DNA of 64,000 nucleotides from Myxococcota bacterium (GTDB lineage Bacteria; Myxococcota_A; UBA9160; JAFDDA01). The stretch lies in the NCBI GenBank assembly GCA_965228475.1, contig OZ245817.1, positions 1,952,001-2,016,000 on the forward strand, in the 5' to 3' direction. Of this stretch, positions 3,029 to 3,298 are shown in pieces. Position numbers and translations under genes: made by a program. Position 1 is the stretch's first letter; the number at the start of each line of letters is the position of its first letter. The notes below the pieces were generated by a model that searched no databases, was not told the DNA's origin, and saw nothing but the letters and a program-made list of their open reading frames with translations.

Positions 3029-3130
3029 GGGGCAGACCGGGGCCCCAGCCGAGACCGGCGTCACGCACATGGGTTCCATGCGAACGGCCGGGCGTGGTTT
3101 ACGGTCCCGGCTGGGGCCCCGGCCTGCCCC
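3029..3130 (-). ncRNA. Candidate structured element copy A (29-bp stem, 44-nt loop)
   Basis: Arms 3029-3057 / 3102-3130, 27/29 WC; the two exceptions are G.U on the minus strand; minus-strand loop TAAACC...GTGCGTGACGC. Confidence 0.5.
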
Positions 3131-3185
3131 TTGTCCTGATTCGAGGGATCCGCGCGCCGTCGTGTACCGCATCACCGAGGAGCGT

Positions 3186-3284
3186 CGGGTGGGAGGGAGG
3201 TCTGCCGGACCGTAAACCCATCCCCGATGCCGGTCGCCACCGAGCCGTGCGTGACGTCGGTCCGGCAGGCCTCCCTCCCACCCG
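3186..3284 (+). ncRNA. Candidate structured element copy B (27-bp stem, 45-nt loop)
   Basis: Arms 3186-3212 / 3258-3284, 26/27 WC + one U.G on plus; loop TAAACC...GTGCGTGACGT shared with copy A. Confidence 0.5.
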
Positions 3285-3298
3285 TCGCGGCGTCCGGG

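Follow-up and report, generated by a model that had tools for sequence, protein, structure and literature searches.

The window, that is, the whole stretch of 64,000 nt that was analyzed, corresponds to positions 1952001-2016000 of the main chromosome (coordinates C1) of a closed 5.0-Mb genome with 70% GC (hereafter G000). A doublet of two hairpins, about 280 bp long, is located at window positions 3010..3288, its ends being those of the alignment with a homologous unit of a relative (X5 record 12, see below). It consists of a 19-nt outer flank, copy A, a spacer, and copy B. An rmlB-like gene for an NAD-dependent sugar dehydratase (3299..4381, minus strand) converges on the doublet, and its stop codon is placed 10 nt from the 3′ end of copy B. 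On the opposite side lies a plus-strand ORF of 47 aa (2735..2878) with CxxC and HxxCxxC motifs, which is divergent from the gene of an HD-GYP response regulator. This ORF matched no family above the cut-off and showed only sub-threshold Zn-finger matches. It is conserved in X5 and in G001, a genome of the same genus, where the orthologous locus is empty of hairpins and the small ORF and both large neighbors are kept. Thus, this Cys-rich ORF is a neighbor only and not the partner of the doublet, a role in which a micro Zn-finger protein had been considered. G000 also has a gene of the roadblock/LC7 type next to an MglA-like ORF, as well as PilZ/PilT-type genes, which suggest that the host is Myxococcota-like.

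Copy A (3029..3130) is read from the minus strand and has a 29-bp stem of A-type arms (3029-3057 and 3102-3130), with two G.T pairs on that strand, and a loop of 44 nt (3058..3101). The loop comprises the 5′ frame TAAACC ACGCCC, a variable middle of 21 nt, and a 3′ frame ending in RACGY. Copy B (3182..3288) is read from the plus strand. Its B-type arms were first described as a 27-bp stem (3186-3212 and 3258-3284) with one G.T pair; if one T.T mismatch is bridged, this stem reaches 31 bp (3182-3288). The 45-nt loop of copy B (3213..3257) contains the 5′ frame TAAACC CATCCC, a variable middle of 22 nt, and a 3′ frame ending in GACGT. The two 5′ feet are separated by the spacer (3131..3181), and the foot of copy B carries on the plus strand the leader word CCGAGGAG (3175..3182), which resembles a REP tag. 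In these respects the original prediction was reproduced: the coordinates and folds of both hairpins are the same, they stand back-to-back at a distance of 55 nt, and all three non-Watson-Crick pairs within the stems first described are G.T on the motif strand.

On the motif strand, copy A folds with a z-score of −8.2 as RNA and −7.1 as DNA, and copy B with −9.5 and −8.9, respectively, none of 200 shuffles being as stable as the two copies. The near-perfect stems fold on either strand. The sub-hairpins suggested within the loops are not conserved, and the consensus fold of 10 copies is formed without any loop pair. The pair had been put forward as a new noncoding RNA or single-stranded DNA (ssDNA) element. 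In Rfam, the only matches of the window above the gathering score are three tRNAs, namely tRNA-Sec (31422-31516, minus strand) and two other tRNA genes (14848-14920 and 15053-15138), with no hairpin family among them. At a relaxed E-value, the elements gave only sub-threshold miRNA hairpins. The promoter scan located no sigma70-like promoter in window 2376-3400, and the terminator scan flagged neither hairpin A nor B, which have no U-tract. The AAC...CGT words of the elements were considered as an ECF promoter and rejected, as their spacing of about 30 nt is too long.

Hairpins A and B define a family (F1) with 10 full copies in G000, all of them intergenic, and one half copy; the expectation of further copies was therefore borne out. 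The half copy (C1:1315108-1315158; L273:1608-1660) retains only the 3′ frame and one arm and is located directly behind a stop codon. A second pair of an A-type and a B-type hairpin is found at C1:3436104-3436367. The stems of F1 are 25-31 bp long and the unpaired loops have 44-45 nt in all 10 copies. In the 10-copy alignment 99.2% of the stem cells are paired, as opposed to 33-58% in slid controls. Changes on both sides were detected at 19 of the 26 stem pairs, a number that is inflated by kinship and partly reflects two stem subfamilies. Since the copies are kin, these paired changes do not represent independent events.

The conserved part of F1 is the inner frame. Only ACCG|TAAACC ... RACGY|CGGT is invariant across the 10 copies, and to this extent the loop motif of the original prediction stands, whereas its longer form GTGCGTGACGY occurs in just three of the 10 copies (GCCCAARACGC in five and related forms in two). 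The six bases following TAAACC are also conserved (ACGCCC in seven copies and CATCCY in three). Consequently, the segment that had been considered variable over 27 or 28 nt begins with six conserved bases, and the free segment is 21-22 nt long. Stems and loops are shuffled within the family, with an A-type loop carried on B-type arms in two copies. The outer stem columns differ between copies and the terminal repeats are not conserved. Regarding the foot, the tag is GTAG in two copies, GGAG in three, another NNAG in four and missing in one, which leaves AG (9/10) as the sole general feature. The word CCGAG[G/T]AG (with at most one mismatch) was found within 36 nt at the 5′ foot in 10 out of 30 elements of F1 and of its sister families F1b and F2 (see below), compared with five out of 30 on the other side and a background of 6%. 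An exact 16-mer of the 3′ frame at C1:1038536, in a lower-GC island, is stemless and was treated as a chance match. A tyrosine integrase is encoded in this island (C1:1030000-1042000), together with an ORF that resembles DNA cytosine methylases.

Guide arrays, such as those of CRISPR, TIGR, and bridge RNA systems, combine unrelated acquired spacers that have targets with an effector gene. The loop middles of the doublet had been suspected to be guide-like, in which case the hairpins would be guide or bridge RNA-like units whose fixed frame presents a targeting segment of 21-28 nt to a nuclease or recombinase. The fixed length of the loop and the fixed frame around a variable middle agree with such a design. 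However, the 10 middles are homologous, with a mean identity of 47% against 31% in shuffles (0/300) and one pair being 90% identical. Their best genomic matches outside the F1 copies have 2-5 mismatches, exactly as the shuffles do. The middles have drifted by point changes and were not acquired as spacers. In addition, there is no array, searches of G000 for IS110 and TnpB as well as for reverse transcriptase (PF00078) gave no match, and the full F1 pattern has no match in IMG/VR. The guide explanation is very improbable and is largely refuted through the homology of the middles.

The genome-wide hairpin scan of G000 revealed 50 inverted repeats, including sister families built like F1. Family F1b has four copies (C1:27663, 30996, and 1252901-1253178) with B-like arms, shifted by one base as judged by eye, and a different loop frame. 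A gene of 1034 aa ends at C1:27768 with a stop codon that is itself the TAG of the F1b foot tag. The F1b word gave six matches in five other genomes, and the sole exact match among them is without a hairpin. Family F2 is order-wide and has 16 copies in G000, including three pairs (C1:798159, 1389331-1389690, 2162132-2162441, 4017927-4018278, and others). Many of its feet read ..CGA|GCG or ..GGA|GCG. Of the 225 class genomes, 45 contain the F2 word, and 23 of these have at least three matches; in IMG/VR it gave 11 matches, none of which then showed the 3′ frame. Two F2 pairs (1389331 and 4017927) have an additional short hairpin in their spacers, the loop of which is of the GCAAAGC type. Family F3 includes six copies arranged in pairs, with stems of 21-33 bp and loops of 80-146 nt (C1:207610-208035, 680757-681131, and 4317731-4320104). 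Two more long hairpins, unassigned to a family, have related inner words and lie at C1:1806798-1806903 and 4306490-4306656.

Sequence comparison showed a further palindrome, F4, with the core GGGGACGTTCCTG, which is unrelated to F1 and F2 and has 10 arms in G000 (for instance, at C1:197094, 2033525, and 4473200). F4-like repeats are found on both sides of a Y1 gene in another genome, G085 (locus L203). F4 is thus a RAYT/TIR-type repeat that has been orphaned in G000.

The close pairs follow a single geometry. All six pairs of G000 are back-to-back, that is, minus-then-plus with the 5′ feet inside, and each consists of members of one family. The same arrangement was found in 19 out of 19 F2 pairs at most 1.3 kb apart in other genomes, as counted by hand among 150 listed of 200 matches. 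Singletons account for 18 of the 30 F1, F1b, and F2 elements of G000; they are divided 9:9 between the leading and the lagging strand (by hand), and a replication strand bias was thus rejected. With crude gene calls (3829 genes), divergent gene pairs flank none of the 24 loci (p=0.003) and convergent pairs flank 10 of them (p=0.019). Frequently, a stop codon lies some 2-45 nt from the element, and at C1:27768 and C1:4820424 the gene stop abuts the 5′ foot.

This preference for gene ends is in favor of a role as host 3′-end structures, acting in termination or pausing, as a roadblock to exonucleases or as RNase III substrates, and spread by ordinary recombination or gene conversion, with no enzyme of their own. 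In such a case the doublet would serve two converging transcripts. The folding of the near-perfect stem on either strand, a related unit in X5 that starts on the stop of dnaN and the lack of any mobilizer found in G000 (both presented below) point in the same direction. On the contrary, the conserved asymmetric loop frame is left unexplained, as is the occurrence of three of the six back-to-back pairs between co-directional genes, and the hairpins are without a U-tract and silent in the terminator scan. Singletons with one adjacent stop are placed in sense to the gene in four cases and in antisense in seven, and a bias of the motif strand despite this free orientation is also not accounted for. 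We regard this explanation as unlikely.

The strand bias in question concerns the mismatched stem pairs. On the motif strand, G.T exceeds A.C by 5:1 in F1 (p=0.22) and by 5:0 in F2 of G000, which amounts to 10:1 for both (p=0.012) and supports the proposal that the motif strand folds as a single strand. In 50 F2 copies from other genomes the ratio is 61:7; collapsing the shared positions within each genus reduces it to 19:7, and two genera run counter to the trend (1:3 and 0:1). The pooled ratio with shared positions collapsed is 29:8 (p=8e-4). For the pair at C1:3436104, located between co-directional genes, the bias is present also on the strand that is not mRNA. The motif strand is rich in C and A across the loop middles of F1 and F1b, a trend that is weak in F2. 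As RNA, the F1 loops are less structured than their complements in eight of 10 copies. Taken together, the G.T bias, the open loop, and the free orientation indicate that the motif strand is kept with a closed stem and an open loop regardless of the gene. This pattern agrees with an ssDNA intermediate or with an RNA that is transcribed from a promoter of its own, and does not fit simple read-through mRNA.

The second of these options corresponds to a multicopy family of small RNAs (sRNAs) with a Y-RNA-like geometry, in which the doublet would represent two divergent sRNA genes. A G.U bias and a less structured loop on the motif strand are both in accordance with it, and so is the drift of the middles in X5 while the stems and the frame are conserved. 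It is nevertheless distinctly improbable: neither an Rfam family nor a sigma70-like promoter nor a conserved promoter-like leader was found, for many copies transcription would run head-on into the end of a gene only a few bases distant, and the family is confined to the species and its very close relatives, among which it changes locus. In a metatranscriptome (X7), contigs cover window positions 2376-2482 and 3455-3500 and not the hairpins, which is a weak test based on one run. The contig of 146 nt that matches 2376-2482 without differences is located upstream of the HD-GYP gene and is possibly of DNA origin.

Beyond G000, F1 was searched at several levels. No copy was found in 40 genomes of relatives, and the counts of an F1 15-mer across the class remained at the level of the controls. 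One match in 400 genomes of the phylum is stemless. The F1 covariance model gave no hit in 149 genomes (27 candidates scored per genome) or in five more. A stricter F1 pattern matched once in the JGI metagenomes, without a stem, and was judged to be a chance match. Among the 119 loci listed for a looser pattern across GTDB none had a stem (best score 7), a result that carries no weight for the absence of F1. In a planctomycete contig (JACQVR010000021.1; L050/L051), two copies of a short-period GACCGTT/AACGGTC repeat, 947 bp apart, are unrelated to F1. F1 is thus restricted to the source species and very close relatives, and its locus changes between them.

Four public sequencing runs were compared as short contigs and provide one case of the doublet changing place. 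X3, a near-identical strain, has the whole locus and differs at 12 positions by substitution over 1.5 kb. Two records are informative for X5, a relative that is about 90% alike. Record 11 joins window position 2924 to 3296 with 95 other letters in between, and the doublet is absent from the rmlB-like locus. Record 12 aligns exactly to 3010-3288, thus containing the whole doublet, and has foreign flanks. Its left flank is the 3′ end of dnaN, and the unit starts on the dnaN stop. In G000 this flank has a single match at that level (C1:4898745, four mismatches in 26), with no hairpin behind dnaN; the right flank has no convincing match in G000. Hence, the two sites are reciprocally filled and empty in the two organisms, although both records are separate short contigs (depth 5.2 and 6.1) that possibly derive from different organisms. 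The doublet is accordingly a unit that changes place, as a REPIN does, in this one case. The filled and empty sites represent gain or loss, the direction being undistinguished. In X6, copy B and its leader are found alone on a 320-nt contig.

In the place of the doublet, the 3′ side of dnaN in G000 has an ORF (L272:1278-1600) that resembles by eye the beta-helix cargo ORFs described below. The presence of a beta-helix-like ORF in G000 and of an F1 doublet in X5 suggests that this site may be an insertion hotspot.

The X5 doublet differs from that of the window by 39 substitutions. From the 33 that are listed, one is in the stems, 15 are in the loops, and 17 are in the 51 nt of the spacer, which is the fastest-changing part; the TAAACC boxes have none. 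Even in the worst case, at most seven of the 39 fall in 120 nt of stem against at least 32 in 140 nt of loop and spacer (p=1e-4). As the stems are so conserved, the differing stems of A and B are old subfamily differences and not the result of hypervariation. The unit lacks sharply defined outer ends, and inspection of the flanks by eye revealed no target duplication. An inversion of the cores, which had also been envisaged, finds no support, as no inversion joint was observed in the contigs of the four runs.

In the search for a mobilizing enzyme, G000 had no match to the Y1/RAYT family (PF01797), to IS110, to TnpB, or to DUF559, and, with no reverse transcriptase, the retron arrangement of such a gene beside an inverted repeat is not present either. 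A search for Y2 in G000 was blank, but its control was likewise silent. Y1 genes were detected in 90 of 225 class genomes, at similar frequencies in genomes rich in F2 (10/23) and in the others (80/202; p=0.82). None of 49 Y1 loci of relatives (the 30 best-scoring and 19 further ones, a twentieth chosen region being an F2 locus) has an F1, F1b, or F2 motif, while the positive control of this test, L203, is flanked by F4. The relatives also contain multicopy Y1-like proteins of about 230 aa (L278-L286, L295, and L296), with up to 18 matches per genome and no long flanking hairpins. Two GIY-YIG genes exist in G000, and neither adjoins the elements.

Four tyrosine recombinases are encoded in G000, that is, one XerC-like, one XerD-like, an integrase of an island, and one of integron type (TIGR02249, 423 bits against a cut-off of 265). 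The latter is part of a chromosomal integron (C1:4362462-4385330), next to about 24 near-identical attC-like sites of 133-135 bp; stray attC-like sites were observed at C1:3912628 and 3917736, 450 kb from the array. Integron integrases act on folded single strands. Like attC, F1 forms a DNA hairpin specific to one strand, whose terminal part varies and whose composition is skewed, and it occurs in a genome with IntI; the hairpins could in principle be stray attC-like sites recombined by the resident integrase. Unlike attC, they have no R boxes (R″ RYYYAAC and R′ GTTRRRY), form no tandem array and occur in both orientations. The R-box scan (RYYYAAC...GTTRRRY, 31 matches) recovered the own array of the genome and no copy of F1, F1b, or F2, and the F1 profile has no match at the attC-like sites of G000. 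Furthermore, IntI, present in 119 of 225 class genomes, is not significantly enriched in those rich in F2 (16/23 vs. 103/202, p=0.12). This origin is extremely improbable.

The F1 doublet is probably a nonautonomous REP/BIME-like element whose mobile form is a single, folded strand of DNA. The multiple copies, the back-to-back geometry, the reciprocally filled and empty sites, the G.T strand bias, and the location behind gene ends all argue for it. In this respect, the alternative of the original prediction in which the hairpins are ssDNA or REP-like sites fits their copy number, their placement behind genes, and their gain or loss between relatives. Each unit would consist of a short leader on the 5′ side that runs up to A|G at the foot, a near-perfect stem of about 30 bp, and an open, C/A-rich, framed loop, and the doublet of two such units joined 5′ foot to 5′ foot by a variable spacer. 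The motif strand would fold while the DNA is single-stranded, so ssDNA would be the relevant folded form, although the G.T bias and the open loop fit RNA equally well. The foot and the loop frame would be read by a nuclease or recombinase acting in trans, either of HUH type, to go by analogy, or one that G000 has since lost, and the whole doublet would then be copied or moved into the space behind another stop codon. The TnpA-REP of Escherichia coli cuts at CT, which would suit the shared left boundary AG|CTAC, even though an agreement of two letters (CT) is possible by chance. The arms may be kept matched by selection, by arm-to-arm copying, or by both, and an inserted stem may double as a 3′ mRNA structure of the host gene. 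Single copies probably represent either remnants or halves that were copied on their own; against remnants, the singletons look as intact as the paired copies. A point against a mobile element is that no mobilizer was found in G000.

A more specific variant can be proposed with much reservation, namely that the two hairpins form the ends of a minimal transposon that moves as a single strand and belongs to an undescribed class. It would be recognized through the loop frame and not the arms, by an enzyme other than Y1, IS110, TnpB, or reverse transcriptase, and would be able to carry passenger genes between its ends. Genes enclosed by divergent sister hairpins include an ORF of 303 aa (L168) and a DUF5076 gene (L169) and, in G000, those at C1:27663-31104 and at C1:4317731-4320104. 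The latter is the wide F3 pair, which encloses two related exported-looking ORFs, one of them with a right-handed beta-helix. Such genes may be passengers or the outcome of two independent insertions. If the transposon-end reading is true, families with a variable stem and a conserved loop would share one mobilizer. If there is no enzyme and the spread is due to host recombination, F1 would be an ordinary lineage-specific repeat.

The strong covariation and the G.U bias of F1 are a caution for screens of noncoding RNAs, as both can arise from a mobile DNA hairpin. The move of the doublet can be traced between two named loci, and the folded motif strand offers a defined bait for a protein.

No description of such a myxobacterial repeat or design was found in the literature covered, most subscription papers being outside this coverage. 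Bacterial MITEs such as ERIC, Correia, RUP, and BOX are nonautonomous repeats of 100-300 bp with long stems, located in 3′ regions. Similarly, the F1 doublet is small, nonautonomous, and long-stemmed and sits behind genes. It differs from MITEs in that its terminal repeats are not conserved, a target duplication is not visible, and no partner IS was found.

TIRtrons and the structures of class-3 TnpA-Y1 with a CnGA foot flank their own Y1 gene, according to the sections of PMC3733652 and PMC6006769 that describe them. The long inverted repeats of our families are, like these, unrelated to GTAG REPs and form dimers, and an nGA-like foot is seen in F2. On the other hand, F1 or F2 flank none of the 49 Y1 loci, a comparison based on the descriptions of these structures.

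A REPIN comprises two conserved inverted REPs that pair around a variable spacer (PMC3116915; Bertels and Rainey 2011). As in that definition, the F1 doublet is long-hairpinned and extragenic, apparently moves as a unit, and co-occurs with singlets. However, each half of the F1 doublet already closes on itself, the arms of A and B differ and do not pair with each other, and G000 has no RAYT.

The closest similarity is to REP/BIME sequences. PMC3733652 presents REP dimers as tail-to-tail heterodimers with variable spacers, G.T pairs in the stems, and a tag at the 5′ foot, and PMC6006769 defines REPs by basal stems of 7-20 nt closed by a loop of 2-5 nt or by a short bulged upper stem, a GT[AG]G tag 0-2 nt 5′ of the foot, and a cognate tnpA-REP/RAYT flanked by the repeats. 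With respect to these accounts, F1 copies are also extragenic multicopy hairpins behind co-directional or convergent genes, restricted to a species, with a one-sided motif at the foot, G.T pairs in the stems, and inverted heterodimers with the tags inside and variable spacers. In contrast to the same accounts, their stems are about 30 bp and their loops 44-45 nt long, there are only 10 copies, the conserved part is the inner frame and not the arms, GT[AG]G occurs at two of 10 feet, and no Y1 exists in the genome or beside the repeats. The spread of REP-like repeats is poorly understood even with a known RAYT (PMC8266576). F1 is a case of REP-like spread in a genome with no RAYT, with a conserved inner frame and exchangeable arms. 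In conclusion, F1 is probably REP/BIME-like and yet falls outside the formal definitions of REP, REPIN, and MITE.
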